The notes below the pieces were generated by a model that saw only the letters and a program-made list of their open reading frames with translations, had not been told where the DNA came from and did no database searches. DNA of 20,000 nt from an uncultured virus (IMG/VR IMGVR_UViG_3300020577_006910) (taxonomy: Duplodnaviria; Heunggongvirae; Uroviricota; Caudoviricetes). The stretch lies in IMG/VR virus record IMGVR_UViG_3300020577_006910; one strand, 5' to 3'. Shown here one piece after another: positions 578 through 16,068 of the stretch (the stretch's first letter is position 1; each line of letters opens with the position of its first letter). The position numbers and the translations under genes were made by a program.

Positions 578-2728
578 TTACAAAGAAATTACATAAGGAG
601 CATATGTTTTTAATTTATCTTCATGCGTGACTACGAGCATCTGAATATTTTTAGATGTAGTGTATGTCTGTAAATTTGTAAATAGGTCTGCTACTCTATC
701 AAGATGATCGCTGTCCAATCCGTAGGTAGGCTCATCCAGCGCTATAAAACCTACAGACTGATTAAACAAACTACTTACTGTAAGTAAAAACGATAGAGCT
801 AAGCAGCAACGCTGTCCACCACTTAACTGTTCAGTTATGGCTGATTGATTATTTGAAAATTTAACTTGAATAGTAGAATCAGCTAATAATTCAACTGTAA
901 ACGGTACGTCGAGTTGAGATAGCAGCTGATTCCAGCTGGCATTAAGTCTAGAAAAATATACGCTTGCTAAAGCTTGAGGAAGTTTGGTAGGGTGTAAAGC
1001 TTGCTTGATTTGCTCCAAACAACCGCAATAACTTTCAATTACATTGCGTTGTTTAAGTGTTTTATGTAGCGTCTCTAATCTTGCATTAATTGACGGTAAT
1101 AGTTTTTGCTCTAAAGCATTTAACTCTGCCTCTGCAAGACTTAATTGTTTTATCTCAGCCCTACAAACAGCCAACTCTGTTTCTAACTTAATTAAGTTAG
1201 TTTGACTTAGTTTTGTTTCTTTTTGAATTAAGCCAGATAAATGTGTTGTAATGTGTTCTATAGCTGCGTTTGTAGCAGATAGTTCTTTGTCTAAAGTATT
1301 TAAATTATTTAATAGCTCATCTACATTTTGCAGTTGTTTATCTAAATAAGCAAGTTTGTCTTGAATAACAGCTATTTCATTATTTAATTGCGTTTCGTCT
1401 AAATCCTTAAACGCAGCTAATTGCGCATCTAGTCCATCTAGCTTTTGCTTTAAACCGATCTCTTGCGTCAGCAGACTTACAAGCTTTGTGTAGTATTCGT
1501 AGATTTTTGTCGTGTTATTGACAGCTTGCGTATAAGTGTTTACGGCAAAAGTTGCCTTTTCTACTAAGTCAGATAAGTGTAAATGTTCTGTACCTTTAAT
1601 TACTGTATCTGTACCGCAAGTTGGACAGACGCCATCTTTAAAGCTAGTCAGTTTTGCCTGCTCTATAGATAAATTTAAAGCAGCTTCTTGTTTTACTTTT
1701 AGCGCTTCAGCTTGTTTAGCGGTAGCTTCGCTGTACGTTATGTACGAACCGTGCACAGCTACAATTTCAGAATGCTTAGCAGTACACTCGGTAACAGCTT
1801 CTGAGCGTCTAGTTAGCAGTTCTTTTTGCTTAGCTATTTGAGTTAATTTTTGTCTACACGTAGATAAAGCTACGGACTCAGCTATTTTTTCCTTAGCCAA
1901 GTGTTCTCTAGTTAAACAGTTTGATACGTTTTCAGCTACAGCAGATTTTTGCAAAGTTAGGTTGTTTAATTTAGTCTGCAGAGTTTCAGCTGTTTTAAGT
2001 GACGCAGATAGCCCTGTTGCCGGATTATTTAGATCGGCAGCTATACTGTGGCATGTAATTACTATTTGTTGCAGACTTGTCTCAGTGGAGCGTAATACAT
2101 CTAAAGAATGCCCCTTAAGTTCAGCGTTTAGTACATCTACGCGTTTAACTGCGTCAGAGTGTTCAGCTGTTAACTTCGAGAGATCCTCTAGTACCATACC
2201 ATTTAACTTACCGGTATAAAAATTTAATTCTGTTGTAGCTAAAGCATATATAGCTTGAAATCTATCGGTACCAAGTAATTTATGTAACATAACATTACGC
2301 TCACTTGGGCGAGCGTCTAATATAGCTGTAGTATCACCTTGTTTTACAAATACAAAATTATCGGATAAATTTTTTGCGGCCCCAAGTAAATCATTTATAC
2401 AAGCGTCTATGTCACTTAACTTAGAATAAATCTGACCATCATAGTTCAATAAAGCTTTTGAACTATGTAATTGTCGGGATATGTGCCCTTTTTTACCGTT
2501 GGCCTCGAAGGTCAACTCTACCCTACCCTCATCCGCATCCCATTTTAAAGCCTCTAATTTTTTAACGTTTGGAGTTACGCCGGTCAATACAAACTGTAAA
2601 GCTTTTAATATATTAGATTTACCGGTACCGTTAGGACCTTGTATAACACACAACCCATTATCAGGAAAAGCGATTACTAAATCAGAATGAATGCCGTAAT
2701 TAACTATGTGTAGCTTTTGAAGTTTCAT
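578..2728 (-). CDS. sbcC: SbcC/Rad50/gp46-like SMC-family ATPase (recombination exonuclease subunit)
   Basis: Walker A GPNGTGKS, Q-loop FVKQG, long coiled coil with central Zn-hook CPTC, ABC signature LSGGQ, Walker B/D-loop ALDEP, H-loop VTH. Confidence 0.95.
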   Translation of the reverse strand: MKLQKLHIVNYGIHSDLVIAFPDNGLCVIQGPNGTGKSNILKALQFVLTGVTPNVKKLEALKWDADEGRVELTFEANGKKGHISRQLHSSKALLNYDGQIYSKLSDIDACINDLLGAAKNLSDNFVFVKQGDTTAILDARPSERNVMLHKLLGTDRFQAIYALATTELNFYTGKLNGMVLEDLSKLTAEHSDAVKRVDVLNAELKGHSLDVLRSTETSLQQIVITCHSIAADLNNPATGLSASLKTAETLQTKLNNLTLQKSAVAENVSNCLTREHLAKEKIAESVALSTCRQKLTQIAKQKELLTRRSEAVTECTAKHSEIVAVHGSYITYSEATAKQAEALKVKQEAALNLSIEQAKLTSFKDGVCPTCGTDTVIKGTEHLHLSDLVEKATFAVNTYTQAVNNTTKIYEYYTKLVSLLTQEIGLKQKLDGLDAQLAAFKDLDETQLNNEIAVIQDKLAYLDKQLQNVDELLNNLNTLDKELSATNAAIEHITTHLSGLIQKETKLSQTNLIKLETELAVCRAEIKQLSLAEAELNALEQKLLPSINARLETLHKTLKQRNVIESYCGCLEQIKQALHPTKLPQALASVYFSRLNASWNQLLSQLDVPFTVELLADSTIQVKFSNNQSAITEQLSGGQRCCLALSFLLTVSSLFNQSVGFIALDEPTYGLDSDHLDRVADLFTNLQTYTTSKNIQMLVVTHEDKLKTYAPYVISL

Positions 2729-2730
2729 TA

Positions 2731-3843
2731 TTACAATCCAATAGCTTTTTTATATTGTTCTAGTTGTAATTTGGGATCGTTGTTCATCATGGCTTTTAAA
2801 AAAGCTGCAGCTGCTGGATCTTTTACATAGGAATTAACCAACGTGTCGAGGCTTAAGTCTAATTTGAGTTCGGGTGTAACGTCAGGTGTTTCTGCGTCAA
2901 AAAATGAACTAAACACATGTGCTTTGTTATCTATATAAGTTTTTAATCTATCTAGAGCTTTATTAATAGAACTGGATATCTTTACACTTACAACAGGTGT
3001 AACAATATCAGGATATTTTTGTTTTTTTATCTCATCATCTATAGTAGGTGTGTTTAATTTTGCGTCTAAGTCGCTAAACATCGCCACTAGGTCTGCTTCA
3101 GTACACAAAGTATAATAATAAAAATCTCGTGTAACTAGTTTATGTTGAGTTAAACTGATCTCACCATTTACTTCATTTACAAGGTATACATATTTTTTAG
3201 ATGCCTCTTTTAGAGCTTGTACGCTTGTGCTACCGGGATACGCAAATAGCGTATTACCGTGACGTTCTTGTATATTTACGTGGTAATCACCAAGAAGCAC
3301 TGCGGGTATTTCTTTGGGTACCCAGTTAGCTTTCATATTTACCATTGCGTCAAATTTACAAAAAACATCTAAAAGTTGGTGACCTACCACTATTGTGCTA
3401 GATGGTTTGCTTAAATGAGGCAACAACTCTTTTGCGTAAAACTGCTCTAACTCTGACGGATTACCGCAAAAAGGTACGCCATACAAATAGAAATTATTTA
3501 AACGCGTTTCTTTATTCTGTATATCCAACCCACCTATTACTTTAATCCAATCGTGTTCTTTACTCTTATCATGATTACCAGGTATACCGTAAAAGTTTAA
3601 ACCATTTTTATTTAGAGCACTAACGCCTTGTTTAGCTACGTATACGCTCTCCGCATCAGGGCGAGCTGAATCAAATAAATCCCCGCCATCAACATAATTA
3701 CAATTGTGTTCTACGCATAGTTGAATAGTTTGGTCAAACGATGCATACGCATCACCAAATATAGACGCCCGAGCCGTCCATACGTGCTTTCGTAAATGTT
3801 GATCAGCTCCAAAAATAAATAATAGATTTGGTTGTTTTGGCAT
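2731..3843 (-). CDS. sbcD: SbcD/Mre11/gp47-like metallophosphoesterase nuclease
   Basis: Calcineurin-like motifs ADQH, GGDLFD, GNHD, GHQ, GDYH, YPGS; ends 2 nt upstream of the sbcC-like start. Confidence 0.93.
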   Translation of the reverse strand: MPKQPNLLFIFGADQHLRKHVWTARASIFGDAYASFDQTIQLCVEHNCNYVDGGDLFDSARPDAESVYVAKQGVSALNKNGLNFYGIPGNHDKSKEHDWIKVIGGLDIQNKETRLNNFYLYGVPFCGNPSELEQFYAKELLPHLSKPSSTIVVGHQLLDVFCKFDAMVNMKANWVPKEIPAVLLGDYHVNIQERHGNTLFAYPGSTSVQALKEASKKYVYLVNEVNGEISLTQHKLVTRDFYYYTLCTEADLVAMFSDLDAKLNTPTIDDEIKKQKYPDIVTPVVSVKISSSINKALDRLKTYIDNKAHVFSSFFDAETPDVTPELKLDLSLDTLVNSYVKDPAAAAFLKAMMNNDPKLQLEQYKKAIGL

Positions 3844-3889
3844 AAAGCAAAAGAACGAATTAACGTTACTTTAACTGTCAAACAGGCGA

Positions 3890-4189
3890 TCAGGGAGATA
3901 AGCTTGCAAAAATACGTTTCACATCTTCACGGGATAAAATAATCACGCCGTAAATCGTAAAGCTACTATTAAAAGGGTGCGTAGCTTTATTTATATTATG
4001 CATTAAAAATTTTATCATGTATGGTTTATAGTTAGTGTCAAATAATACATGAGACATATACACGCACTTAATATGGTAGGCAATAGAGGCACTAAAGCTA
4101 AAACCAAACGTTAACATAAACAAACTAGAGCTATTAATATTCATACTACCTGTTCTTAAGTAGTTAAACTTTTTAAAGCAGTAAATCAT
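3890..4189 (-). CDS. YxF-array member 22 (99 aa, MIYCFK...), hypothetical
   Basis: ATG overlaps the upstream member by 17 nt; N-terminal YCF. Confidence 0.65.
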   Translation of the reverse strand: MIYCFKKFNYLRTGSMNINSSSLFMLTFGFSFSASIAYHIKCVYMSHVLFDTNYKPYMIKFLMHNINKATHPFNSSFTIYGVIILSREDVKRIFASLSP

Positions 4190-4511
4190 TTATACGTAGC
4201 TCCGCATCTGCGTGCTCGAACTGCTTCGTAGACATAGAATTAACAAAATAAATTAAAGCGGAAGTTTTTGGTTTACGCCGTAGATTTAAAACTACGTGAC
4301 CATGGTTATTAAATACGTAATATTCGTTATCACTATGGTGCCGCATAGTACGTGGTTTGGTGCTATCTACAAATATAAAACAAAAACAAGTGCTACGCCA
4401 GAAGTAGCCTTTCATGTAGTTAACGCAATAAAACATAAAAAACGTATAATAAAAAGCAGTCTTTCCTGAATAATTGTGGCATTTAAAGACGTAACCAAAA
4501 GGTGCTTTCAT
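4173..4511 (-). CDS. YxF-array member 21 (112 aa, MKAPFGYVFK...), hypothetical
   Basis: ATGA start/stop overlap at 4508-4511; N-terminal YVF. Confidence 0.7.
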   Translation of the reverse strand: MKAPFGYVFKCHNYSGKTAFYYTFFMFYCVNYMKGYFWRSTCFCFIFVDSTKPRTMRHHSDNEYYVFNNHGHVVLNLRRKPKTSALIYFVNSMSTKQFEHADAELRINDLLL

Positions 4512-4975
4512 GTTTTTTGTAAAGAATAAATACCGTATAAGTAATATTCATATGAGACCATGTTAAGTTGAAACTCTCTATTTTTTCTAGAGTATCTCGT
4601 TCGTTGTTTATGTGTGCGATCAAGTACGGTAAGCGCCAAGAACACCTCCTCTTCTGGTACATATGCATGTTTATGTAAATTACGCAACGTCAATATAGAC
4701 AGATTGAGACTAGTGTAAATTAAATAAGTAGAACGTCCCCACATAGTGGAATGTATCGCGTGATCACCGTATTTTTTTGCTTTAATTGAAACAGTTAAAA
4801 AATCCGAAGGATCGGTTTTGTCTTTATAAAACATATAAATAAGACCGTGCAATAAATTAAATATTTTTAACTTTTGATTCGTTAACGCGGGTGTAGTATT
4901 AGGGCGTAGTTTATTCGCTAAATCGTTGTACTCGTCAGATAAAAAGGTGTAGTTTTGACGTGCCTTAGTTTTCAT
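4508..4975 (-). CDS. YxF-array member 20 (155 aa, MKTKARQNYTFL...), hypothetical
   Basis: 11-nt overlap with the upstream member; N-terminal NYTF. Confidence 0.72.
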   Translation of the reverse strand: MKTKARQNYTFLSDEYNDLANKLRPNTTPALTNQKLKIFNLLHGLIYMFYKDKTDPSDFLTVSIKAKKYGDHAIHSTMWGRSTYLIYTSLNLSILTLRNLHKHAYVPEEEVFLALTVLDRTHKQRTRYSRKNREFQLNMVSYEYYLYGIYSLQKT

Positions 4976-5267
4976 ATATAGGGAAACCTGTCGGACAATA
5001 CACCACGTTTATGCTAATTATTTGATCAAAAAACGTACATTTAACACTGTAGCTAAACACCTCCGTGTGTTTACTAATAAAAAATTGAGGTCTAAAAACA
5101 TAAAAACAATAACAACGATAAAAATGAAAAGGTCTACGTTCAACTCCAAATGCAGTAATAGGATAGTTTCCCAGTATCTGCTTTGTTGCAGAAGTAAAAA
5201 ATGTTTGTTCTTTATCAGATAAACAGAATAGATGTTTACTTAGTTTAAAAACATAGTTAATTGTCAT
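4965..5267 (-). CDS. YxF-array member 19 (100 aa, MTINYVFK...), hypothetical
   Basis: ATGA overlap at 5264-5267; N-terminal NYVF. Confidence 0.7.
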   Translation of the reverse strand: MTINYVFKLSKHLFCLSDKEQTFFTSATKQILGNYPITAFGVERRPFHFYRCYCFYVFRPQFFISKHTEVFSYSVKCTFFDQIISINVVYCPTGFPIYEN

Positions 5268-5578
5268 TTTTTTAGCGTTACTTTCAATTTACCGTGATTG
5301 CGTAGCTTTTTTTGTTTTTTTACGTATATATAGTTATTGTTGTTAATGGGCACTGGAGTAACTGCAAAATAGGAAACCATCAAATTTCTGCCAGGACGTA
5401 CACTGAACCGTCTTGTTGAGCGTCCGCCTATATGTACAAAGCAGTACATCTTGCGTGAATAAGGTGGTACATATTTAGAATCAGCGCAGCAAACAGTAAA
5501 CCAGCTAGAACGACGATGTATTCTAGTAAAATATAAAAAGCGTGAATTATCTGGTTTGAAAGAATAGTTAGTTTTTAC
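5264..5578 (-). CDS. YxF-array member 18 (~104 aa, [V]KTNYSFKPD...), probable non-canonical GTA start (track calls a shorter ORF from 5449)
   Basis: Frame is open 43 codons upstream of the ATG at 5449; ccGAGGTGcgct-GTA AAA ACT AAC TAT TCT TTC gives NYSF. The start codon is uncertain. Confidence 0.55.
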   Translation of the reverse strand, partial: VKTNYSFKPDNSRFLYFTRIHRRSSWFTVCCADSKYVPPYSRKMYCFVHIGGRSTRRFSVRPGRNLMVSYFAVTPVPINNNNYIYVKKQKKLRNHGKLKVTLKK

Positions 5579-5898
5579 AGCGCACCTCGGAATACACGAC
5601 GCAGGTTAAAAACTTTTTGTTTGGAATCGGAATACACGACGCAGGTTAAAAACTTTTTGTTTGGAATCGTGATGTCCATATACACCGCGCACTCAAAAAC
5701 TTGAACGTAAAAATCTACGAACATATAAACACAAGAATATTCAGTACGAAAACCAATCGGCAAATTAGTGCAATTAATATGAATGTCATCACTTATGCAC
5801 GAAGACATGTACATTAATGACAAATAAATAAACGAATTTGCGCGTAAAATGCTGTCTAGTTTAGGGTTAAGTTTAAATCTGCTAAAGCTGTACAGCAT
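5575..5898 (-). CDS. YxF-array member 17 (107 aa, MLYSFSRF...), C-terminus altered by a 40-bp duplication
   Basis: Start re-called to ATG 5898, 2 nt after the upstream stop (track start 5934); N-terminal YSF. Confidence 0.65.
   Translation of the reverse strand: MLYSFSRFKLNPKLDSILRANSFIYLSLMYMSSCISDDIHINCTNLPIGFRTEYSCVYMFVDFYVQVFECAVYMDITIPNKKFLTCVVYSDSKQKVFNLRRVFRGAL
5587..5669. repeat. Perfect 40-bp tandem duplication (2 copies plus 3-nt TCG terminal microhomology)
   Basis: tcggaatacacgacgcaggttaaaaactttttgtttggaa at 5587-5626 and 5627-5666, followed by tcg. Confidence 0.97.
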
Positions 5899-5900
5899 AG

Positions 5901-6326
5901 TTAACACACAGGATACTGTAATAGCGGTGGACATTCTACGCTACCAATATTTATGGGCATAGTTGATTTATCAAGAGGTAAACTTACCCAACTGTACGCC
6001 GTAATATCTATAACAAGTTTGTGTGCGTATGGTGTATACGTAAACTTATATTTTGTGTTATTGCGTAACCTAAACACGATAAACTCAACACGATCTCTAC
6101 CGTAAGTTGCCTGTAACATAAAAGCAACGCTTATTACCACAAAGTAATCAGCACGTTTTCCAGTTTTTTTCTGTAAATATTTTAACGTATACCAAGCTAC
6201 ACAATAAGGATTATAGACGTTCACTTGACGTAAAGGGAACAGCTTATCAGCAGTTGTTGTTTTTAAAACACTAAACGATCTGTAGTTAAATAAATAGCGC
6301 ACTTTTGAATTGTTAGCTATCAGCAT
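5901..6326 (-). CDS. YxF-array member 16 (141 aa, MLIANNSKVRYLFN...), hypothetical
   Basis: 14-nt overlap with the upstream member; N-terminal YLF. Confidence 0.72.
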   Translation of the reverse strand: MLIANNSKVRYLFNYRSFSVLKTTTADKLFPLRQVNVYNPYCVAWYTLKYLQKKTGKRADYFVVISVAFMLQATYGRDRVEFIVFRLRNNTKYKFTYTPYAHKLVIDITAYSWVSLPLDKSTMPINIGSVECPPLLQYPVC

Positions 6327-6624
6327 CGGTTTTAATTAAAACGTTTTTCTGAGGTTTTAAATACCAGCTAGATAACAACATAAGACCGTAAAGTTGTGGT
6401 TTTGTATACGTGCAGCTGTAACATTTATTATCGACAGCTTTGATTGTAAATATACAAAAATTAAATAACATATAAATTGCAGGGCAATTAGTATAAACGT
6501 TTATAGCCAATTTGCTTAAATCACGTTTATTAAAAACTTTTTGTGATAATGCATATAATGAAGATGAAAAATTTACAACATCAACAGGCGAGTAATAAGT
6601 AAATCCAAAAGCGTATCGGACTAT
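6313..6624 (-). CDS. YxF-array member 15 (~103 aa, [I]VRYAFGF...), probable ATA start (track calls a shorter ORF from 6510)
   Basis: AGGAG-tcacagt-ATA GTC CGA TAC GCT TTT; in frame with the track ORF; no ATG/GTG/TTG between the upstream TAG TAG and the motif. Confidence 0.6.
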   Translation of the reverse strand: MVRYAFGFTYYSPVDVVNFSSSLYALSQKVFNKRDLSKLAINVYTNCPAIYMLFNFCIFTIKAVDNKCYSCTYTKPQLYGLMLLSSWYLKPQKNVLIKTDADS

Positions 6625-6668
6625 ACTGTGACTCCTGTTCCTTAGTAAACACAGCTACTACAAGCAAA

Positions 6669-7031
6669 CTAACAAAAGTCCGGCAAAAAATAATGACTAA
6701 ACCTATAAGAAGCAACACCTACGATAGATATAAACCCGGTTACGTTATCAAGATCAATACAAAAAGACCACGTGTTTTTTCCTATTTTTAAATTATCTAA
6801 AGGCGTGTGTGGAGTTTTTAGCGGCAAGCTTTTATATATGTACATACGCGAATTAAGTAGACTGATGTTAATAGCCGTATAATGCCTATTACAAGTCCAC
6901 CCAATAAAAGGCGGTCTTACTTTAGGGTTTACATTAAACATGCGAAGCCAGCGTATATTACCTATTGAGACCGCACAATTTGGATCTTCAAGCTCTTTAA
7001 ACACATAACTAGATCTTTTGATGAGTTGCAT
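6669..7031 (-). CDS. YxF-array member 14 (120 aa, MQLIKRSSYVFK...), hypothetical
   Basis: Start re-called to ATG 7031, 1 nt after the upstream stop (track start 7073); N-terminal YVF. Confidence 0.68.
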   Translation of the reverse strand: MQLIKRSSYVFKELEDPNCAVSIGNIRWLRMFNVNPKVRPPFIGWTCNRHYTAINISLLNSRMYIYKSLPLKTPHTPLDNLKIGKNTWSFCIDLDNVTGFISIVGVASYRFSHYFLPDFC

Positions 7032-7032
7032 G

Positions 7033-7317
7033 TTATGTGATCCGTAAACTGGTTGACATTGCATTGAAGGCATGAACTGATGTTACTATATTCAAAGAGC
7101 TGTAGTCTAGATTGTAGTTGTTACCGGGGTAAGTGTATACATACAAATAAAAATACAAACAATGACAATGCCAAGCGGTGTAGTTAGCCCCGCCATGCCC
7201 ATTAATAACACAATTGTTTGTCCAGCGTACGTAACATTTTATCAAAGGTAGAGAATTGGTGTTATTAAAATAAATGTAATGAGGGCTAAACCCATAATAG
7301 CTTTTATTAGCTAGCAT
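7033..7317 (-). CDS. YxF-array member 13 (94 aa, MLANKSYYGFS...), hypothetical
   Basis: 7-nt overlap with the upstream member; N-terminal YGF. Confidence 0.65.
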   Translation of the reverse strand: MLANKSYYGFSPHYIYFNNTNSLPLIKCYVRWTNNCVINGHGGANYTAWHCHCLYFYLYVYTYPGNNYNLDYSSLNIVTSVHAFNAMSTSLRIT

Positions 7318-7493
7318 AGGCGATATTGATATCGATGATTATACATACGCATACGATCTAGAATGACATCAAGATAGTAATATATTAACCATAAAGGTTC
7401 CCACCTATACCATATATAGCTATACGCTACAGGATCTTTAATAAATGCATGACTAAGACTAAAACAATATTTAGGAAAACTGGAGGTTGTCAT
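7311..7493 (-). CDS. YxF-array member 12 (60 aa, MTTSSFPKYCFS...), hypothetical
   Basis: N-terminal YCF; stop overlaps the next start. Confidence 0.6.
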   Translation of the reverse strand: MTTSSFPKYCFSLSHAFIKDPVAYSYIWYRWEPLWLIYYYLDVILDRMRMYNHRYQYRLC

Positions 7494-7524
7494 TCAATGG
7501 GCAGCCAAACGTAGCTACTGAACT

Positions 7525-7854
7525 CTAGTCAAGAAACAATCTATTATTGCGGTTTGTTGAAAACTTAATGAAAGTTACAGACTCTCTGTAAGAAATTTTA
7601 ACGTAATAACTTTCAAGCGTACATAAGTTTAAAGTCATACACCAATCTGGAAAAGTTGGAGGACTACTGTGATTTACAATATACGAACTACCTATATGAA
7701 TCATTAAAGAACTGGGACTATACCAATGGTAAATTCCGTCATACGTTAACCAATCAAAATAAGCACAAAGTAAAAGAAAACAACTTTTTTTAATAGAAGA
7801 GTCGGTGTTGATATATCGTTCTTTATAGGGGAGTGCAAAACAATAGTTAAACAA
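7525..7854 (-). CDS. YxF-array member 11 (109 aa, MFNYCFA..., TTG start), hypothetical
   Basis: GAAAGGA-tgcc-TTG; N-terminal NYCF. Confidence 0.68.
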   Translation of the reverse strand: MFNYCFALPYKERYINTDSSIKKSCFLLLCAYFDWLTYDGIYHWYSPSSLMIHIGSSYIVNHSSPPTFPDWCMTLNLCTLESYYVKISYRESVTFIKFSTNRNNRLFLD

Positions 7855-7882
7855 GGCATCCTTTCAAACGACTGAAGTTAAC

Positions 7883-8107
7883 TTACATAAAAAACATTTC
7901 TATATTAAAAACAAAATTTGGCATTAATACATAAAAATGTATAAATTCCGCAAAAACTATTATCCACACACCTGTGTAGGCACGACTACTGTTAACGGTT
8001 ACAGCAGGAGCATCCCATAGTTTTTTACACGCAAAATTAGCCACTATAACACGATAGTTATATTTACTGTACTCGTTAATCATTGAATTAAAGGTATAGT
8101 TACGCAT
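7883..8107 (-). CDS. YxF-array member 10 (74 aa, MRNYTFN...), hypothetical
   Basis: 8-nt overlap with the upstream member; N-terminal NYTF. Confidence 0.68.
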   Translation of the reverse strand: MRNYTFNSMINEYSKYNYRVIVANFACKKLWDAPAVTVNSSRAYTGVWIIVFAEFIHFYVLMPNFVFNIEMFFM

Positions 8108-8321
8108 TAGCTATTATGTACAGATGTATATCTGTGTCATAATTAAACTTAGCTAAAAAGCCTAACACAACAGGACTGTTAGACGCATAAACGGTATCAC
8201 CATAAAATTTAGCGTAATTTAAACGTTGTAACACATATAAAAAATGTAACGTAGCATCTAGTCTATTTATATGCGTAAGTACAGATGTAATGCGGTGGTT
8301 AAACAAATAGTTATTCAACAA
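8100..8321 (-). CDS. YxF-array member 9 (73 aa, MLNNYLFN..., TTG start at 8321 or 8318), hypothetical
   Basis: AAGGGAG-ctg-TTG-TTG; N-terminal NYLF. Confidence 0.68.
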   Translation of the reverse strand: MLNNYLFNHRITSVLTHINRLDATLHFLYVLQRLNYAKFYGDTVYASNSPVVLGFLAKFNYDTDIHLYIIANA

Positions 8322-8336
8322 CAGCTCCCTTGTGCT

Positions 8337-8555
8337 TTACGTAGAAAACCACCAAACATCTGGTTCGTGCGAGCTTGGTTTAAACACAACTAACTTATAA
8401 ACAGATACATAAGGATTAGCAAAAACACGTACATAATTATAGGTAGAAAATCGCGTCAAGTATAGCAACACATTAAACGGATTGTAGTAAGTATAAGCAA
8501 GATTTGCACCTGAAAGAATACGTGTGTACTTTTTGCTAAATTTGTAGGTCGGCAT
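8337..8555 (-). CDS. YxF-array member 8 (72 aa, MPTYKFS...), hypothetical
   Basis: ATG 8 nt after the upstream stop; N-terminal YKF. Confidence 0.65.
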   Translation of the reverse strand: MPTYKFSKKYTRILSGANLAYTYYNPFNVLLYLTRFSTYNYVRVFANPYVSVYKLVVFKPSSHEPDVWWFST

Positions 8556-8563
8556 ACAAAGAG

Positions 8564-8869
8564 TTAGGTAAACAGATCAACGTAATTATTATGATTAAAA
8601 CTAGTCATATAAGCTTCCACAGTCCAAAAACTAAAAAAAGGTGACTTAGAGATGTAAGTCCGATCACAGAAAAACCTACCTGTAAATAAGATGCCTGCGT
8701 TACGTACAGTTAAAAATACACAACACCGAAAGTCACAATAAGTCATAATTAAATAAAATGTAGGTGTGTACCACTCAATAGGATAGGTACGCCAAAAATC
8801 AAAATAATGAAAAGCTCCGAGCTTAGACTTAAATCTGTAATGATTACCGGGAACAGTTTTGACAGACAT
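8564..8869 (-). CDS. YxF-array member 7 (101 aa, MSVKTVPGNHYRFK...), hypothetical
   Basis: GAGGA-cac-ATG; N-terminal YRF. Confidence 0.7.
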   Translation of the reverse strand: MSVKTVPGNHYRFKSKLGAFHYFDFWRTYPIEWYTPTFYLIMTYCDFRCCVFLTVRNAGILFTGRFFCDRTYISKSPFFSFWTVEAYMTSFNHNNYVDLFT

Positions 8870-8901
8870 GTGTCCTCAGGATGGCCACGTTTAACCAAGC
8901 A

Positions 8902-9198
8902 CTAAAAGTATGGATAATGCAAAGATCCACAGTCTAACACATAATCCACGCGACCTGTCACACAATTTAGTACAGCTAAACGCCAGTTATACAATGCGCT
9001 ATAGACATTACGGTTAATTTCTATGTAGATCTTCGAATACTCTGAATGAGTAGTTATATTACTGTTATAAAAATCTACCTGTCTGCTGTGCCGTCCTGTA
9101 TAACTTAAACAAAAAGCACATTGATTAAAAACAGCTGTATCTTCATATATCGGGGTATATTTTTTATATAAAGGTATAAATGTGTAGATCCGTTTAAT
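8902..9198 (-). CDS. YxF-array member 6 (~98 aa, [I]KRIYTFIPLYKKY...DCGSLHYPYF), probable ATT start; absent from the ORF track
   Basis: Stop-free frame from 9213 to the TAG at 8904-8902 fills the apparent gap; AAAGGAc-gttatcc-ATT AAA CGG ATC TAC ACA TTT; same Y/F/C-rich composition as its neighbours. Confidence 0.6.
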   Translation of the reverse strand: MKRIYTFIPLYKKYTPIYEDTAVFNQCAFCLSYTGRHSRQVDFYNSNITTHSEYSKIYIEINRNVYSALYNWRLAVLNCVTGRVDYVLDCGSLHYPYF

Positions 9199-9224
9199 GG
9201 ATAACGTCCTTTTTTACATAAAAG

Positions 9225-9336
9225 TTAAGCATAAGAATCAAAATAGACGCCATGCTTAGACCTCGCTAAAGGCAACACGTAAAAACGCCCAAACATTAAC
9301 TTGATAAGAGTACTTAAACTCATAGCTATACCTGAT
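9225..9336 (-). pseudogene. YxF-array member 5, truncated or frameshifted ([I]RYSYEFK..., ATC start)
   Basis: AAAGGAG-tttagct-ATC AGG TAT AGC TAT GAG TTT; stops at 9258-9256 after 26 codons; an overlapping frame continues ...FGRFYVLPLARSKHGVYFDSYA to TAA 9227-9225. Confidence 0.4.
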
Positions 9337-9396
9337 AGCTAAACTCCTTTGCTGTTAGCTGTTTGCACTAAACGTGAACAATTAACACAAAGTTAT

Positions 9397-9729
9397 TTAA
9401 TTAAAATCAATGCAAACACTATGACTAAAAATAATTGTAATAAAGTTTGAATGTTTACTAGCGCGGCTAGAATTAGCACTGGTGCGGCTAATGTCAGTAA
9501 TTGATATAGTTACGTAACTTAAAAAATACGGATCTGTGGCGTAAACGTAGTAACAGTGACTTGTGTACGAATAACAAGTTGAATGACTTCTTTTAACATA
9601 AGTACAAACAGTGTACAAACCAATTAAACGATAGACATAAACTGAATTAAAAATTTTTGGTAAATGCAGTATTGAGTTAACGGGAGTAAAATTAATTAAA
9701 TTATTAGAATCAAAATTATACAAAATCAT
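9397..9729 (-). CDS. YxF-array member 4 (110 aa, MILYNFD...), hypothetical
   Basis: Start re-called to ATG 9729, a 14-nt overlap with the upstream stop (track start 9774); N-terminal YNF. Confidence 0.65.
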   Translation of the reverse strand: MILYNFDSNNLINFTPVNSILHLPKIFNSVYVYRLIGLYTVCTYVKRSHSTCYSYTSHCYYVYATDPYFLSYVTISITDISRTSANSSRASKHSNFITIIFSHSVCIDFN

Positions 9730-10012
9730 GAATCTCGTAATACGAATCTGCGTAATGTGGTTTAAAAATACCATCAGCCGTTTGATTAAAATATTGTCGG
9801 CATGTTAACGTAGCTAACCTATAAGGCTCGTGGTCTAAAAAAAATAATGGAAAACATACAAAGCTCACAAATGACATAGCCTCACTATTCCGCTGATAGC
9901 ACAAACAGTACTGATCAGTGTGCGACATAAAACGCCCTCCGGGAAGTGAACAATAGTTAGCTATAAAACAACTAGAATTACCTCTAAAAACATAAGCTTT
10001 GTTAACGCGAAT
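9716..10012 (-). CDS. YxF-array member 3 (~98 aa, [I]RVNKAYVFRG...), probable ATT start (track calls a shorter ORF from 9928)
   Basis: TAAGGAG-aagcgtc-ATT CGC GTT AAC AAA GCT TAT GTT TTT; 28 codons in frame upstream of ATG 9928. That ATG also has a GGAGG upstream, so either start is possible. Confidence 0.6.
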   Translation of the reverse strand: MRVNKAYVFRGNSSCFIANYCSLPGGRFMSHTDQYCLCYQRNSEAMSFVSFVCFPLFFLDHEPYRLATLTCRQYFNQTADGIFKPHYADSYYEIHDFV

Positions 10013-10041
10013 GACGCTTCTCCTTAGCGGGCGTTGTTTAA

Positions 10042-10449
10042 TTAGTTAAAATAGTTACAAAAGTGTTTGCTGCAACGAAGCTTAAATACGTACTCACTAT
10101 AAGGGACGTTAACCGAGCAATATCTACGTTCATTCATGTCTGAAGGCGTACGCGTAACCCAAGTCAAATTAGGTAAAGAACAAAACCTAAAAAAGTTTAC
10201 ATTTACATAAAAAAAATATTCAGCCTTACACGAACGATCATCGTGTGTAAACATAGAATAATTTACACGTACGTACAACCGTGAGAAAGCAGATATTTCA
10301 AATCCATAAGATAGACAATAAAGACTAGCTAAAGAATAAGCGCAAAATTGTTTATCTAACGCAGTAACTGATTTAACTGCAGAATACTCATGCACACGCA
10401 TAGACGTTAAAGTACATAAATTACCAAATTTAAAGCTATAAAAAATCAT
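10042..10449 (-). CDS. YxF-array member 2 (135 aa, MIFYSFKF...), hypothetical
   Basis: 14-nt overlap with the upstream member; N-terminal YSF. Confidence 0.72.
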   Translation of the reverse strand: MIFYSFKFGNLCTLTSMRVHEYSAVKSVTALDKQFCAYSLASLYCLSYGFEISAFSRLYVRVNYSMFTHDDRSCKAEYFFYVNVNFFRFCSLPNLTWVTRTPSDMNERRYCSVNVPYSEYVFKLRCSKHFCNYFN

Positions 10450-10735
10450 AGAAGTCGTACAACTCAGCTATCTCTGTGACAATAACAGCGCGTTCAGATG
10501 TACCGTAAGCAGCTTTTTTTAAAAGTACGCTTTGCATTTTTGAAAAGCAAATCGCACCAGCTCCAAAAGCCACACCACGATTAACTGAAGGTAAAACCAG
10601 TAAATTTATGTATAGGTTAGACAAAGAAGTAAAACAATAAGAATAAAGTGACATCGTATCGTCGCGATTGTTGTAAAGGGAACAATAACTGTGAGTTAAC
10701 GAAGGTTTACGTGTATAAGTGTAAACTGTAGCCAA
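10436..10735 (-). CDS. YxF-array member 1 (99 aa, MATVYTYTRK..., TTG start), hypothetical
   Basis: Strong SD AAGGGAGGT directly upstream; N-terminal YTY variant. Confidence 0.7.
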   Translation of the reverse strand: MATVYTYTRKPSLTHSYCSLYNNRDDTMSLYSYCFTSLSNLYINLLVLPSVNRGVAFGAGAICFSKMQSVLLKKAAYGTSERAVIVTEIAELYDFYDFL

Positions 10736-10821
10736 CCAACCTCCCTTAATGTTAGGTGTTTGTAAGGCTCAATGTAAAAGATTGTTTAATGTGTAAAGAT
10801 ACTCGTCTTTAAATAAAGAAA

Positions 10822-10960
10822 AAACAAATTTACGCCGAAGGCGGAAATTTGTTTATTTGGTGACGAAGACGAAGTCGGAGTCACCTAATTCCTTTTTTTC
10901 TCGAAGGCTATCCTTACAGCACTCCGAGTGAAACGAGGAGTAGCGAGTAAGGAGCCGAGA
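10822..10960 (+). other. Cluster of three GAA-triloop hairpins (structured ssDNA/RNA element; candidate origin, ss-initiation site or hairpin promoter)
   Basis: H1 10822-10854: aaacaaattt-a-cgcc-GAA-ggcg-g-aaatttgttt. H2 10859-10885: ggtgac-gaa-gac-GAA-gtc-gga-gtcacc. H3 10899-10960: tctc/gaga, ggc/gcc, tccttac/gtaagga, gc/gc, actcc/ggagt, ga.ga, gt-GAA-ac. Confidence refers to the structure, not a function. Confidence 0.8.
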
Positions 10961-10980
10961 GACTTAATCAAATTTTATAT

Positions 10981-10996
10981 GCTTGGGAACCCAAGC
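10981..10996. repeat. Short perfect inverted repeat
   Basis: gcttggg-aa-cccaagc. Confidence 0.85.
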
Positions 10997-11020
10997 TCTT
11001 GTATATATAAGTAGTGGAAC

Positions 11021-11069
11021 TTTGAACGAACGGTGGTAAACCTTCAGAATTTTGAACGAACGGTGGTAA
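11021..11069. repeat. Two perfect 19-bp direct repeats with 30-bp period (iteron/operator-like)
   Basis: tttgaacgaacggtggtaa at 11021-11039 and 11051-11069, each preceded by gaaY. Confidence 0.92.
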
Positions 11070-11119
11070 TTAGACATTTTAATTTAATTAGACGCTTAAT
11101 TGATATTAAAATGTCTAAT
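11069..11119. repeat. 15-bp perfect AT-rich inverted repeat with additional inner pairing
   Basis: attagacattttaat (11069-11083) / attaaaatgtctaat (11105-11119); inner ttaatta/taattga. Confidence 0.9.
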
Positions 11120-11135
11120 CAGTATTTTTACTTAT

Positions 11136-12473
11136 CTAAGTTGGTATTTGTACGGTGTGCATGCCATTAAACTCGACATAATCGTGTATGTACCATTCCA
11201 GCCAATGTGTTTTATTTCTATTGGCCAATTCTTCAAACAGCTTATAGTTTTTTACCAGATACTCTTTAAATTGCTTTAACTGCACTAATCCAGTAAATAT
11301 AAAATTATTAAAGCAAAGAACTGGATCTTCGCCAGTTGCCAGATATTTTAGTGCGTCAAGCATGGAATCTGCTTCATACAGGTTTACTACTTGCACTTTG
11401 TACATTGGGTTAGCTTCTAGGTTTTTTATGTAGCGCTGTATACGCCTTACTGTAGCCTTCTGGTTGTTTTTGGCTATGTAGGCTACAGTGACGTCTACAA
11501 ATGTTCCTGATGGATCTAATGCGGTATTAGCCGGAATACTATTAATAACTCTATATACCTCTTCACCTTTTTCGGTTAACTTGTCTACGGCTTTTCTAGT
11601 TAATTCCTTTAAAGGTTCGCGTATATTTTTTAGATACCCGTACTGAAAACGATAAGTAAAATATATAACTTTGTATTTAACGCTTGGATCAACAGGCTTT
11701 TTAACTTCTTCATCAAATACAGCGTGTATCTTTCTAATCCAGCACCATGGGCATAATTTGTAGTTATTGCATACAATTAGTCCGTGTTTACTGGTTATTT
11801 TTTTAACTATTGAGTTTTTGTTTAGCTGTAGTTCTTCTACTAAGGTGTCTTTTTTTAAATGCCATCCACCTACTTGCGGTACGCAAAACCTTGTAGAGTA
11901 CAACGCTCTTAATGCAGAGTTTAAACTATGCTGCGCTACTCTGCCGTTTGCGGTGTAGCTCTCAATAGTTTTCTTGTTTTCGATTTTTCCAGTTATGTCG
12001 GTAAAACCAACAGACATTACGGTTGGATTTATTACCCCATCGAATAATAACCCACGTAATGCAATATATTGTTTAATAGCGTTTGTTAGTGGGTCGCTGC
12101 TATAGGATTTAGTCATGTATGCGTCTAGTACAGTTAGATACGGTTTCATGCCTCTAAATAAAATTTTTTCGTAGAGTTCATCTGCCATCCAACCATAGTA
12201 CCTGTCGACTTTTGCTTTAAGTAGCAGTTCTTCTATTGAGCTGCTGTTTAACCCAAGTCGATTATGTGCTAGTTGTGGATTAAGTGTAATTACTTTGTTT
12301 TTTATGTTTAAATTATATTTAGCTAAAGACCAGTGAGCAAAACCATTTACAGGTACACGTTCTTTTGGTAGTATGTGTTTCTGTACTTGCAATAATTTTC
12401 TTTTTGATAGCGTTCCATTTATTTTTGGTAGGTCGTTTAAATTAACTGAGGTTTTTATATGTCCGTCGCTCAT
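11136..12473 (-). CDS. Hypothetical basic protein (445 aa) with C-x5-C-P-x-C Zn motif; possibly a degenerate HUH/rolling-circle Rep-like origin-binding protein
   Basis: Long Lys-rich ORF; VCNNYKLCPWCWIRK resembles the CxxRLCPxC..RR motif of Rep_1/IS91-type proteins; later VIYFTYR (motif I-like) and ALKYLAT (motif III-like); no H-U-H. The CDS is solid and the function is tentative. Confidence 0.55.
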   Translation of the reverse strand: MSDGHIKTSVNLNDLPKINGTLSKRKLLQVQKHILPKERVPVNGFAHWSLAKYNLNIKNKVITLNPQLAHNRLGLNSSSIEELLLKAKVDRYYGWMADELYEKILFRGMKPYLTVLDAYMTKSYSSDPLTNAIKQYIALRGLLFDGVINPTVMSVGFTDITGKIENKKTIESYTANGRVAQHSLNSALRALYSTRFCVPQVGGWHLKKDTLVEELQLNKNSIVKKITSKHGLIVCNNYKLCPWCWIRKIHAVFDEEVKKPVDPSVKYKVIYFTYRFQYGYLKNIREPLKELTRKAVDKLTEKGEEVYRVINSIPANTALDPSGTFVDVTVAYIAKNNQKATVRRIQRYIKNLEANPMYKVQVVNLYEADSMLDALKYLATGEDPVLCFNNFIFTGLVQLKQFKEYLVKNYKLFEELANRNKTHWLEWYIHDYVEFNGMHTVQIPT

Positions 12474-14229: not shown

Positions 14230-16068
14230 ATGGCTTCTCCTGATATAGTTAATCAATTAGTTGAATGGTCAAACTCGCAGAACACTGCAAATCCTTTGCC
14301 GTTAAACAAAGGTTTACGTTTAATATCTGATTTGTACAAGAACAAGAACTGCGATACTCTAGTACCTATTTTACCATTATTACTTAGCCTAAAAGGCAGA
14401 CCTTTTACATTAAAAGATCACATGCCCATGGAGCCTCTCTATAGGTTTAGAGATGTCCCTTTGAACACGCTAGTTAAATGCGGACGCCAGGTATCTAAGT
14501 CAACTAGTCTAGCTGCAACAAGCATAATGTTTAATGCTATTACTCCGTATTTAAATACCCTATGCGTAAATCCTTTATTTGAACAAATTCGTCGTTTCTC
14601 TAATAACTCTGTACGCCCCTTTATCGAAGAGTCACCTGTAAGAAAGTTAATCCAAGGTGAGACCGACGTAGATAACTCTGTTCTACAGCGCACGTTTTCA
14701 AACGGTTCAAATTTATTTTTTACGTTTGCTTACATAGATGCAGAGCGTGCTCGCGGTATTCCTGCAGATATTATTAAATTTGACGAAATTCAAGATATAG
14801 ACCAGGACTTTATTCCAGTTATTGTTTCGTGTTCAGACGCTTCGCAGTACGGTCTTATTCAAATGTCCGGTACGCCTAAGACGCTTGATAATCCAATTGA
14901 GATGTTTTGGCAGAAAAGCAGTCAAGCGCACTGGACAGTTCGCTGTGGATGCGGTCACTATAACATTGCTACTCTAGAGTGCGGTTTAATGGATATGTTG
15001 CAAGACCATGGATTTGCGTGCTGTAAGTGCTCTAAGTTACTTAACACACGCGAAGGATTTTTCTACCACATGTACGCTGATAGAAAAGAGATGTTTCCGG
15101 GTTACCACATACCGCAATGCGTTATGCCCATGCATTGTGAAAACGAACGTCGTTGGTATATGTTAATGGACAAAAAACGAAACTGGAAACAGTATTTATT
15201 CTTAAACGAAGTTTTAGGCGAAAGCTGTGACTCTGGTCAACGTTTAGTCACAGGAGCGCAACTCAGACGTTCGGCTAATCTACCTTGGAACTTAAATAGA
15301 GAAGAGGGTTTAGCCGCAAGACATTCAACTGACTATACTTCCGTTGTAATGGGTGTTGACTGGGGTGGCGGTGGTGCAGGTATAGTTAAAAAACGTAAAA
15401 ATAAAATTATTGTAGAAAATGGTACTCCGTCATATACCGTAATGACTGTTGTTGGGTTTAGACGCAATACGATTGAACCTGAAGTAATATACGCTGAGCG
15501 ATTAAATCCATCTTTAACACCTACAGAAGAAGCAAACTATATATGTAAAAGCTTTTTTGAGTTTAAGTGCTCTATTTTTGCGCATGATTACGGTGGCGCA
15601 GGTGCGTTACGTGAAACCATTATTCTACAAGCTAACTTACCTGAAGATGTGTTAATGCCGTGTATCTATACGCGTGCACCATCGCAACCGATTGTGCAAT
15701 ACGTACCGCCTTCACTAAACAGACCACGTCGTTACTATTCAGTAGATAAAGCAAGATCTTTATTGCTACTCTGCTCTGTTTTAAACGCCGGATTAATACG
15801 TTTTCCGAAGTGGCCAGATGTTAAGGATAACGCTGCTTGTCTTTATGAGGATTTTTTAGCTCTCATCGAAACAAAGACAGAGAATCCACGTGGATCTGAT
15901 GTATATCTGGTGGTTAAAAATCCGTCTTGGCCGGATGACTTTTGTCATTCTTTAAATTTAGCGTGCTTAGCCAGTTGGCACAGCTTACAACAATACCCTG
16001 ATCTTGCCGCTAAATTTGGTGTTTCTTATGGACCCGAAACACCTGACGTTCCTGCTAATGATGCGTAA
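14230..16068 (+). CDS. terL: Phage terminase large subunit (GpA-like ATPase plus RNase H-fold nuclease)
   Basis: Walker A-type KCGRQVSKST, RG..ADIIKFDE Walker B, SGTP coupling motif, Zn-ribbon Cys pairs (CGCGH, CCKC), NEVLGE, nuclease GVDWG and C-terminal PDDFCH. Confidence 0.9.
   Translation: MASPDIVNQLVEWSNSQNTANPLPLNKGLRLISDLYKNKNCDTLVPILPLLLSLKGRPFTLKDHMPMEPLYRFRDVPLNTLVKCGRQVSKSTSLAATSIMFNAITPYLNTLCVNPLFEQIRRFSNNSVRPFIEESPVRKLIQGETDVDNSVLQRTFSNGSNLFFTFAYIDAERARGIPADIIKFDEIQDIDQDFIPVIVSCSDASQYGLIQMSGTPKTLDNPIEMFWQKSSQAHWTVRCGCGHYNIATLECGLMDMLQDHGFACCKCSKLLNTREGFFYHMYADRKEMFPGYHIPQCVMPMHCENERRWYMLMDKKRNWKQYLFLNEVLGESCDSGQRLVTGAQLRRSANLPWNLNREEGLAARHSTDYTSVVMGVDWGGGGAGIVKKRKNKIIVENGTPSYTVMTVVGFRRNTIEPEVIYAERLNPSLTPTEEANYICKSFFEFKCSIFAHDYGGAGALRETIILQANLPEDVLMPCIYTRAPSQPIVQYVPPSLNRPRRYYSVDKARSLLLLCSVLNAGLIRFPKWPDVKDNAACLYEDFLALIETKTENPRGSDVYLVVKNPSWPDDFCHSLNLACLASWHSLQQYPDLAAKFGVSYGPETPDVPANDA

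Follow-up and report, generated by a model that had tools for sequence, protein, structure and literature searches.

Candidate near-cognate, Shine-Dalgarno-assisted start codons in a small-protein array of an uncultured phage

The 20,000-nucleotide (nt) stretch of DNA analysed here, which we call the window, belongs to an uncultured virus of the Caudoviricetes (IMG/VR record IMGVR_UViG_3300020577_006910) and carries on its minus strand an array of 22 small open reading frames (ORFs). We find that the array uses two kinds of start: entries led by a Shine-Dalgarno (SD) sequence lie on weak codons, whereas coupled starts without an SD lie on ATG, and this split is real and statistically significant. 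For three of the weak codons, ATT 10012, ATT 9198 and ATA 6624, we put the probability at about 0.5 that they are real weak, SD-assisted starts of the kind described for infC, pcnB and ccpN. The exception is of a known kind, found here at unusual density.

Start codons and their signals in the array

An initial annotation of the window had proposed that five array members start at near-cognate codons, each 7 nt from an SD, and all five strings of SD, spacer and codon were located exactly (Table 1). Four of the codons (ATT 10012, ATC 9336, ATT 9198 and ATA 6624) are indeed one-base variants of ATG, whereas the fifth, GTA 5578, differs from it at two positions and should not have been counted among the near-cognates. 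As had also been stated, no ATG, GTG or TTG lies between the upstream in-frame stop and the tyrosine-x-phenylalanine (YxF) motif found near the N-terminus of the array proteins, which holds for all five frames. The motif sits 2–6 residues past the five proposed codons, and 2–10 residues past the start in the ATG- and TTG-started members. The first canonical codons lie downstream, at 9928, 6510 and 5449 and, for the 9198 frame, at codon 73 of the 103-codon open frame; the 9336 frame has none. Four of the frames are intact over about 100 codons, as proposed (98, 98, 103 and 104 codons), and the 9336 frame is open for 26. Further in-frame near-cognate codons occur at ATT 10042, CTG 6654 and ATT 5593. 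The three TTG codons at 10735, 8321 and 7854, which had been listed as further SD-led starts, were all found behind SD-like motifs.

To relate start codon to context, we classed starts by their distance to the upstream stop, taking the ATG nearest the stop where there were several (9729, 7031 and 5898). Thirteen starts are coupled, that is, they overlap the upstream stop or lie within 8 nt of it; 12 of these are ATG essentially without an SD and the 13th is GTA 5578, a count that agrees with the earlier statement that coupled members nearly all use ATG. The nine gap starts, which lie 15 nt or more from a stop or are first in the array, are TTG, ATT, ATC, ATT, ATG, TTG, TTG, ATG and ATA. ATG use thus differs between coupled (12/13) and gap starts (2/9; Fisher p=0.0015). 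Sorting by SD instead gives the same picture, with ATG at none of the six starts whose SD has a duplex energy of -6.9 kcal/mol or stronger and at 14 of the remaining 16 array starts (p=0.0004). The SDs at the array heads (-11.9 to -6.9 kcal/mol) are the strongest of all starts in the window, and the ten genes outside the array, all started by ATG, have no SD stronger than -6.4 kcal/mol. These ten larger genes mostly have little or no SD, as noted for 12459-12473 and the starts of the non-array genes; the host of the phage may perhaps make little use of SDs, in which case those of the array heads would stand out more. Codons of the form ATH (ATT, ATC or ATA) make up 5.7% of array codons, and by our estimate the chance of finding one at the SD-set spacing at four of four sites is about 1e-4. 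All four one-base variants are ATH, and none is a second-position variant or CTG.

The letters at these sites are reproducible. We compared the window with contigs of four sequencing runs, X2 (from another study), X5, X9 and X6, and did not count the coverage gaps of X5 and X9 over parts of the stretch as evidence. The X2 contigs are identical to the window at all five sites, those of X5 at 6624 and 9336, and those of X9 at 6624. As X2 comes from an independent study, sequencing or assembly error, which the initial annotation had allowed for, can be set aside. X2 is an RNA library in which DNA carry-over is possible, and its contigs show neither transcription nor starts.

We also asked whether the four stretches that lead from a proposed codon to the first canonical one (28, 68, 38 and 43 codons) look like coding sequence, using frame-specific trinucleotide frequencies trained on the 17 ATG- or TTG-started members. 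In frame, these stretches score 0.24–0.48 and 0.20–0.29 per codon against two shifted-frame models, and the first 40 codons of canonical members score 0.10–0.46 per codon on the same measure; out of frame, the same stretches score about zero or negative. Since the in-frame scores are like those of canonical members, we conclude that the stretches are translated now or were until recently. The sole indel polymorphism inside such a stretch (X2, at 5464) is 3 nt long and in frame; X2 differs there, at 5463-5466, by one substitution and the in-frame 3-nt deletion, in the member that begins at GTA 5578 (m5578) and upstream of its first ATG. The earlier interpretation gains in part from these results, through the significant split between weak-codon, SD-led and ATG, coupled starts and through the coding scores of the upstream stretches, and also from the established SD-assisted AUU and AUA starts that throttle expression in E. 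coli and S. aureus; its suggestion that the de novo entry points into the array are deliberately weak goes beyond them.

Table 1. Coordinates of the array, of the members discussed and of other features of the window (SD, Shine-Dalgarno sequence; energies are those of the SD duplex).
Feature	Coordinates	Strand	Signal or basis
Array, 22 consecutive small ORFs (26-155 codons)	3890-10735	minus	ORF list
First member, TTG start	10436-10735	minus	TTG behind AAGGGAGG, -11.9 kcal/mol
m10012, ATT start, 98 codons, YVF at residue 7	9716-10012	minus	SD TAAGGAG (10026-10020), 7 nt, ATT 10012; -9.1 kcal/mol
ATC ORF, 26 codons, YSY/YEF	9256-9336	minus	SD AAAGGAG (9350-9344), 7 nt, ATC 9336; -8.2 kcal/mol
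19-codon upstream ORF, ATG 9253	9194-9253	minus	GAGGT, 6 nt, ATG
m9198, ATT start, 98 codons, YTF at residue 5	8902-9198	minus	AAAGGAC (9212-9206), 7 nt, ATT 9198; weak AAGGA, -5.6 kcal/mol
m8555, ATG start, 72 amino acids in the window	8337-8555	minus	Frameshifted in X2 and X5
TTG(TTG)-started member	8100-8321	minus	Behind AAGGGAG, -7.6 kcal/mol
TTG-started member	7525-7854	minus	Behind AAAGGA, -5.4 kcal/mol
m6624, ATA start, 103 codons, YAF at residue 4	6313-6624	minus	SD AGGAG (6636-6632), 7 nt, ATA 6624; -6.9 kcal/mol
Perfect 40-nt tandem duplication	5587-5666		3' end of one member, just upstream of GTA 5578
m5578, GTA start, 104 codons, YSF at residue 5	5264-5578	minus	ccGAG (5590-5586), 7 nt, GTA 5578; GAGG, -7.2 kcal/mol
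SbcC-like nuclease subunit	578-2728	minus	Family match under table 11
SbcD-like nuclease subunit	2731-3843	minus	Family match under table 11
Large terminase	14230-16068	plus	Family match under table 11

Interpretation of the weak entry codons

We suggest that the small phage proteins of the array, probably products of early or accessory genes, are encoded in an operon whose translation is coupled. Ribosomes would enter de novo at nine places, of which seven combine an SD-like motif with a weak codon (TTG at three, ATT at two, ATC and ATA at one each). In this scheme a strong SD would hold the 30S subunit on the weak codon, and the downstream members that lack an SD would be translated by termination-reinitiation at an ATG overlapping or abutting the upstream stop. 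By analogy with measured systems, ATT 10012, ATT 9198 and ATA 6624 could then initiate at roughly 1–10% of the ATG level, and the weak heads would throttle each coupling chain, much as AUU and AUA do in infC, pcnB, cvfC1 and ccpN. The weak starts are probably a built-in expression brake of known kind, though some of the genes may be dying. The anatomy of the sites, the statistics and the reproducible letters were observed directly, whereas initiation at these codons and selection for their weakness are inferred. In favour of this reading, four of the ORFs are intact and the downstream genes without an SD need them for coupling; also, the fact that a relative of m10012 (P0005) has been called only from an internal ATG, and that no ortholog of m9198 has been called, fit an absence of canonical starts in relatives. 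ATA 6624 is the cleanest of the five cases: it lies 44 nt past the upstream stop and heads a chain of eight coupled genes reaching down to 3890, and the alternative near-cognate for this member, CTG 6654, is without an SD.

A number of observations weigh against this reading. At the near-cognate sites the SD itself guided the choice of codon, so the argument is circular there. SD-like 9-mers number 29 on the minus strand of the window and 27 on its plus strand, which is no overall enrichment, while six of them fall within a few tens of bases ahead of array heads. The letters of the start sites were compared in the near-identical strains X2, X5 and X9. The structure models of array proteins are poor: that of m10449 in the Atlas has a predicted local distance difference test (pLDDT) score of 0.31, with no look-alike at 0.9 or above, and AlphaFold2 run from a three-sequence alignment reached a pLDDT of 44.7. 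The frameshift of m8555 described below demonstrates that a member can be lost in nature. Among the individual sites, ATG 9928, in frame 84 nt downstream of ATT 10012, has a stronger SD than the ATT itself, and its product of 70 amino acids, which does not contain YxF, needs no ATT. The ATC 9336 ORF is most likely the remnant of a member. At ATT 9198 the SD is weak and the codon lies at the stop of an upstream ORF with a canonical start, so it may be reached by re-initiation from that 19-codon ORF. Finally GTA, being two positions off ATG, falls in the class of 57 codons reported to give 0.1–1% of AUG initiation in E. coli (10.1101/063800).

The chief rival explanation is decay of the start codons. 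According to this explanation, the five members are dead or dying in a fast-evolving, dispensable array, and former SD-led ATG or GTG codons were recently hit by third-position mutation. We consider this rather unlikely, yet several observations speak for it. Every one of the five codons is one substitution away from ATG or GTG, and at a genomic G+C content of 33–36% mutations that replace G by A or T are favoured. GTA 5578-5576 and the upstream stop (TAA 5577-5575) share bases as GTAA, which has the geometry of a GTGA or ATGA overlap and is a single transition from GTGA; the GTA looks like the recently decayed GTG of a GTGA overlap, unless m5578 starts at ATT 5593 by coupling. The 40-nt duplication just upstream is not in X6, and it recently rewrote the end of the neighbouring member, shifting its frame so that its stop now overlaps GTA 5578. 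The 9336 frame, already down to 26 codons, has three in-frame stops before ATT 9198 and lies in a region (9217-9341) across which X6 cannot be aligned. In X2 and X5, 4 nt are missing at 8486-8489 (one unit of a short TACT repeat), which cuts m8555 from 72 to 31 amino acids. X6, which is 3–16% diverged, covers the four intact sites (4434-5586, 5627-6905, 8695-9216 and 9591-10220), and in it several segments at gene junctions are unalignable or replaced. Array members are gained, rewritten and lost in nature, and the pseudogene reading stays alive.

On the other hand, decay does not readily account for which starts carry the codons other than ATG, GTG and TTG. These are found at five of eight starts led by an SD-like motif (the gap heads and GTA 5578) and at none of the 12 ATG-coupled ones, and all four variants derived from ATG are ATH, for which equal chances would give (3/7)^4 = 0.03. 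The four ORFs of about 100 codons remain intact in AT-rich DNA with normal in-frame codon usage, and loss of a head would silence the coupled genes without an SD, of which seven follow 6624. A canonical upstream start also seems to be missing from a relative's ortholog of m10012.

Two further features lie at or near start sites. A second, diverged variant in X2 (record 7) has 9975-10087 replaced by 116 unalignable letters, a segment that spans the end of m10449, the SD and ATT 10012. In the m9198 frame, an ATG-TAA start-stop pair lies at 9219-9214 on the minus strand, 15 nt upstream of the ATT, and the similarity to X6 ends exactly at this pair. A search of 1.84 billion representative proteins gave no called ortholog of m9198; two matches to the 9198 frame in the representative library are long multi-stretch proteins, which we judged spurious.

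Alternatively, the proteins could be made from the downstream codons ATG 9928, TTG 6510 and ATG 5449, and would then be shorter and without YxF, the upstream stretch being a leader or a vestige. This finds its best support at ATG 9928, which lies 6 nt behind GGAGGG (within 9943-9935, -10.0 kcal/mol) and is the start that gene callers chose both in the strain of the window (P0004) and in a 77%-identical relative (P0005). A caller offered a longer ORF that begins at an SD-led canonical codon would be expected to choose it, and the relative therefore probably has no such start upstream either; at m10012 both ATT 10012 and ATG 9928 may be used. For the group as a whole we regard downstream starts as improbable, as no SD-like site of -6.5 kcal/mol or stronger precedes 6510 or 5449, the 9198 frame would yield just 30 amino acids, the strong SDs stand at the upstream sites, and the sequence between these sites and the downstream codons looks coding and includes the motif common to the other members.

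Re-initiation rather than de novo entry is another way in which weak codons could come into use, with ribosomes held after termination accepting them: ATT 9198 would be reached through the 19-codon ORF, GTA 5578 or ATT 5593 through the upstream member, and ATT 10042, which has one base in common with the upstream stop, perhaps for m10012. The geometry invites this comparison, in that ATTAA (9198-9194), GTAA (5578-5575) and TAATT (10044-10040) resemble the ATGA and TAATG overlaps of the array; the 19-codon ORF begins 2 nt past the stop of the ATC ORF, and its own TAA (9196-9194) shares a base with ATT 9198. Yet the other 12 coupled starts are all ATG, and ATA 6624 and ATT 10012 lie 44 and 29 nt past the upstream stop with an SD of their own. 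Accurate re-initiation in E. coli is moreover described as still using initiator tRNA and proofreading by initiation factor 3 (IF3), and the same account reports random non-canonical starts only when ribosome recycling fails (PMC2268962). As a general explanation we find re-initiation very unlikely. Frameshift fusion of neighbours at 10045, 6654 and 5578 was considered and rejected, as the SDs lie beyond the upstream stops and no slippery site allowing re-pairing was found. An alternative genetic code was ruled out, since reading under table 11 leaves the large genes intact and in agreement with their families.

Returning to weak SD-assisted starts, a bolder version can be proposed. Excess IF3 in E. 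coli is reported to inhibit de novo non-canonical initiation as well as re-initiation without an SD at AUG (PMC2268962). As these are the two start types of the array, initiation fidelity could act as a gate on the expression of the whole array. Low IF3 proofreading relative to ribosomes, such as might follow a disturbance of host translation by the phage, would then be the only condition under which about 20 YxF proteins are made, and YxF would be the tag that addresses these otherwise unrelated cargo proteins to packaging, to export or to a partner they share. This proposal seems to us quite improbable.

The YxF array and its genomic setting

The array lies between SbcD and a 445-codon gene. 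Its proteins are rich in tyrosine (9.5%) and phenylalanine (8.2%), high in serine and cysteine, and low in glutamate, glutamine, glycine and alanine when compared with the other genes of the window. Y-x-F is found 2–10 residues past the proposed start in 21 of the 22 members, the first member having Y-T-Y instead, and its context is frequently [N/R]-Y-x-F-[K/N/S]. By simple arithmetic from the tyrosine and phenylalanine frequencies, chance would place the motif in far fewer than one in ten windows of this short length, and we therefore take it to be real. The tyrosine of the motif is encoded by TAT in 13 members and by TAC in nine, so that it is kept as a peptide rather than as a nucleotide signal; this variation rules out a motif acting at the RNA or DNA level. 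Apart from the motif the proteins have little in common. A search of the 21 longer members against Pfam and PHROG gave no match below E=0.01, and when the 22 were compared all against all by BLASTP, no pair was convincingly paralogous, the best value being E=0.004 in a database as small as these 22 sequences. One member has relatives that are 86% and 60% identical, of exactly equal length (135 amino acids) and with invariant aromatic and cysteine blocks, from which we conclude that array members are real genes. We suggest that YxF is a peptide tag on otherwise unrelated proteins.

Two gene junctions on the minus strand, 10436-10449 and 9716-9729, are near-identical in DNA (ATGATTTT[T/G]TATA); at both, the upstream protein ends in -DF-x and the next begins with M-I-[FL]-Y-x-F. 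This suggests that gene junctions have been copied or exchanged among members.

Upstream of the array is a gene-free stretch of 400 nt (10740-11135), which may be its control region. Two repeats lie there, one direct (23 nt; 11017-11039 and 11047-11069) and one inverted (15 nt, perfect; 11069-11083 and 11105-11119), together with an 18-nt hairpin (10819-10857). A scan for promoters and terminators gave nothing above shuffled expectation. The G+C content of the window is 32–41%, that of the genome being given as 33–36%; no tRNA gene was found within the window, and no protease gene was identified in it. Proteins identical to those it encodes are recorded on a 73.6-kb contig, and a 12.6-kb JGI contig of the same strain is known from a protein look-up.

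The closest terminases are 53–57% identical in uncultured phages and 25–30% identical in cultured phages of various hosts. Among 50,697 public phage records Megablast found none that matches 5200-10800, and tblastn with the terminase, SbcC and a 180-amino-acid end fragment gave distant matches alone (25–51% identity); these are scattered over phages whose hosts vary widely and so do not point to any one host. Single-protein scans of IMG/VR with SbcD and the terminase returned nothing, and an alignment search with the terminase returned 80 loci (best identity 53%), in none of which tblastn detected relatives of array members. In the two nearest IMG/VR phages the SbcD-terminase neighbourhood is present without this array. 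In one of these two, L002, whose terminase is 53% identical, the space between SbcD and terminase is taken up by another set of small ORFs, about 20 in number (2615-9267, minus strand). Several of them are paralogs with W-H-T-[MV]-[RK]-x-K-N as their common N-terminus, and these lack YxF. Of two scans of JGI metagenome contigs, the first found nothing and the second two spurious loci without phage-like ORFs.

Comparison with known systems

If the weak starts are real, at least three proteins of this phage are overlooked or cut short by standard gene callers, and one of them, P0004, is stored 28 residues short; the downstream-start products of two members were looked up and were not in the protein collection. 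The array would then be a compact natural operon in which output is set at every ribosome entry by a strong SD combined with a weak codon, and it would offer natural pairs of SD and codon for studying how near-cognate initiation is tuned. Were the gating by IF3 to be true, the phage would time gene expression through the initiation fidelity of its host. Should the starts prove not to be real, the array would be a record of genes dying through loss of their start codons in a phage accessory region of fast turnover.

Initiation outside AUG, GUG and UUG is well described in E. coli, where AUA, AUC, AUU and CUG are reported to initiate at 1–2% of the AUG level and the other 57 codons at 0.1–1%; the confirmed natural cases given in that report are only infC and pcnB, both with AUU (10.1101/063800). 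The candidates described here resemble these two genes in that no AUG, GUG or UUG is available and the SD places the ribosome on an AUU, with IF3 proofreading limiting the output of the E. coli genes. In contrast, infC and pcnB are single conserved host genes with experimental proof, whereas the array has three to four candidates within 7 kb, known from sequence, and it has no evident autoregulatory logic.

A further parallel is found in S. aureus, where retapamulin-assisted ribosome profiling (Ribo-RET) is reported to have mapped AUU (cvfC1) and AUA (ccpN, citZ, infC) starts behind extended SDs, with about 10% of AUG activity (PMC13009471). As in these genes, AUU or AUA in the array follows a strong SD at fitting spacing, and cvfC1 encodes a small protein and is the first gene of its operon (PMC13009471). 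The staphylococcal starts differ in being mapped by Ribo-RET and conserved across staphylococci or Bacillus, while the array SDs are 5–8 nt long.

The pairing of a weak codon with a strong SD also has a counterpart in the survey of Belinky, Rogozin and Koonin (2017; PMC5622118), who report strong SDs to be more frequent in prokaryotic genes started by GUG or UUG than in those started by AUG; the array shows an extreme form of this. As described there, AUU and CUG starts were left out and the tendency is a weak, genome-wide one, not an all-or-none split within an operon. For the YxF motif alone, and not for the start codons, we point to the internal proteins of phage T4, in which the capsid targeting sequence is described as a short N-terminal peptide (PMC3012670). 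Here too, unrelated and fast-evolving small phage proteins would have just a short conserved N-terminal tag in common, which is an analogy and no more.

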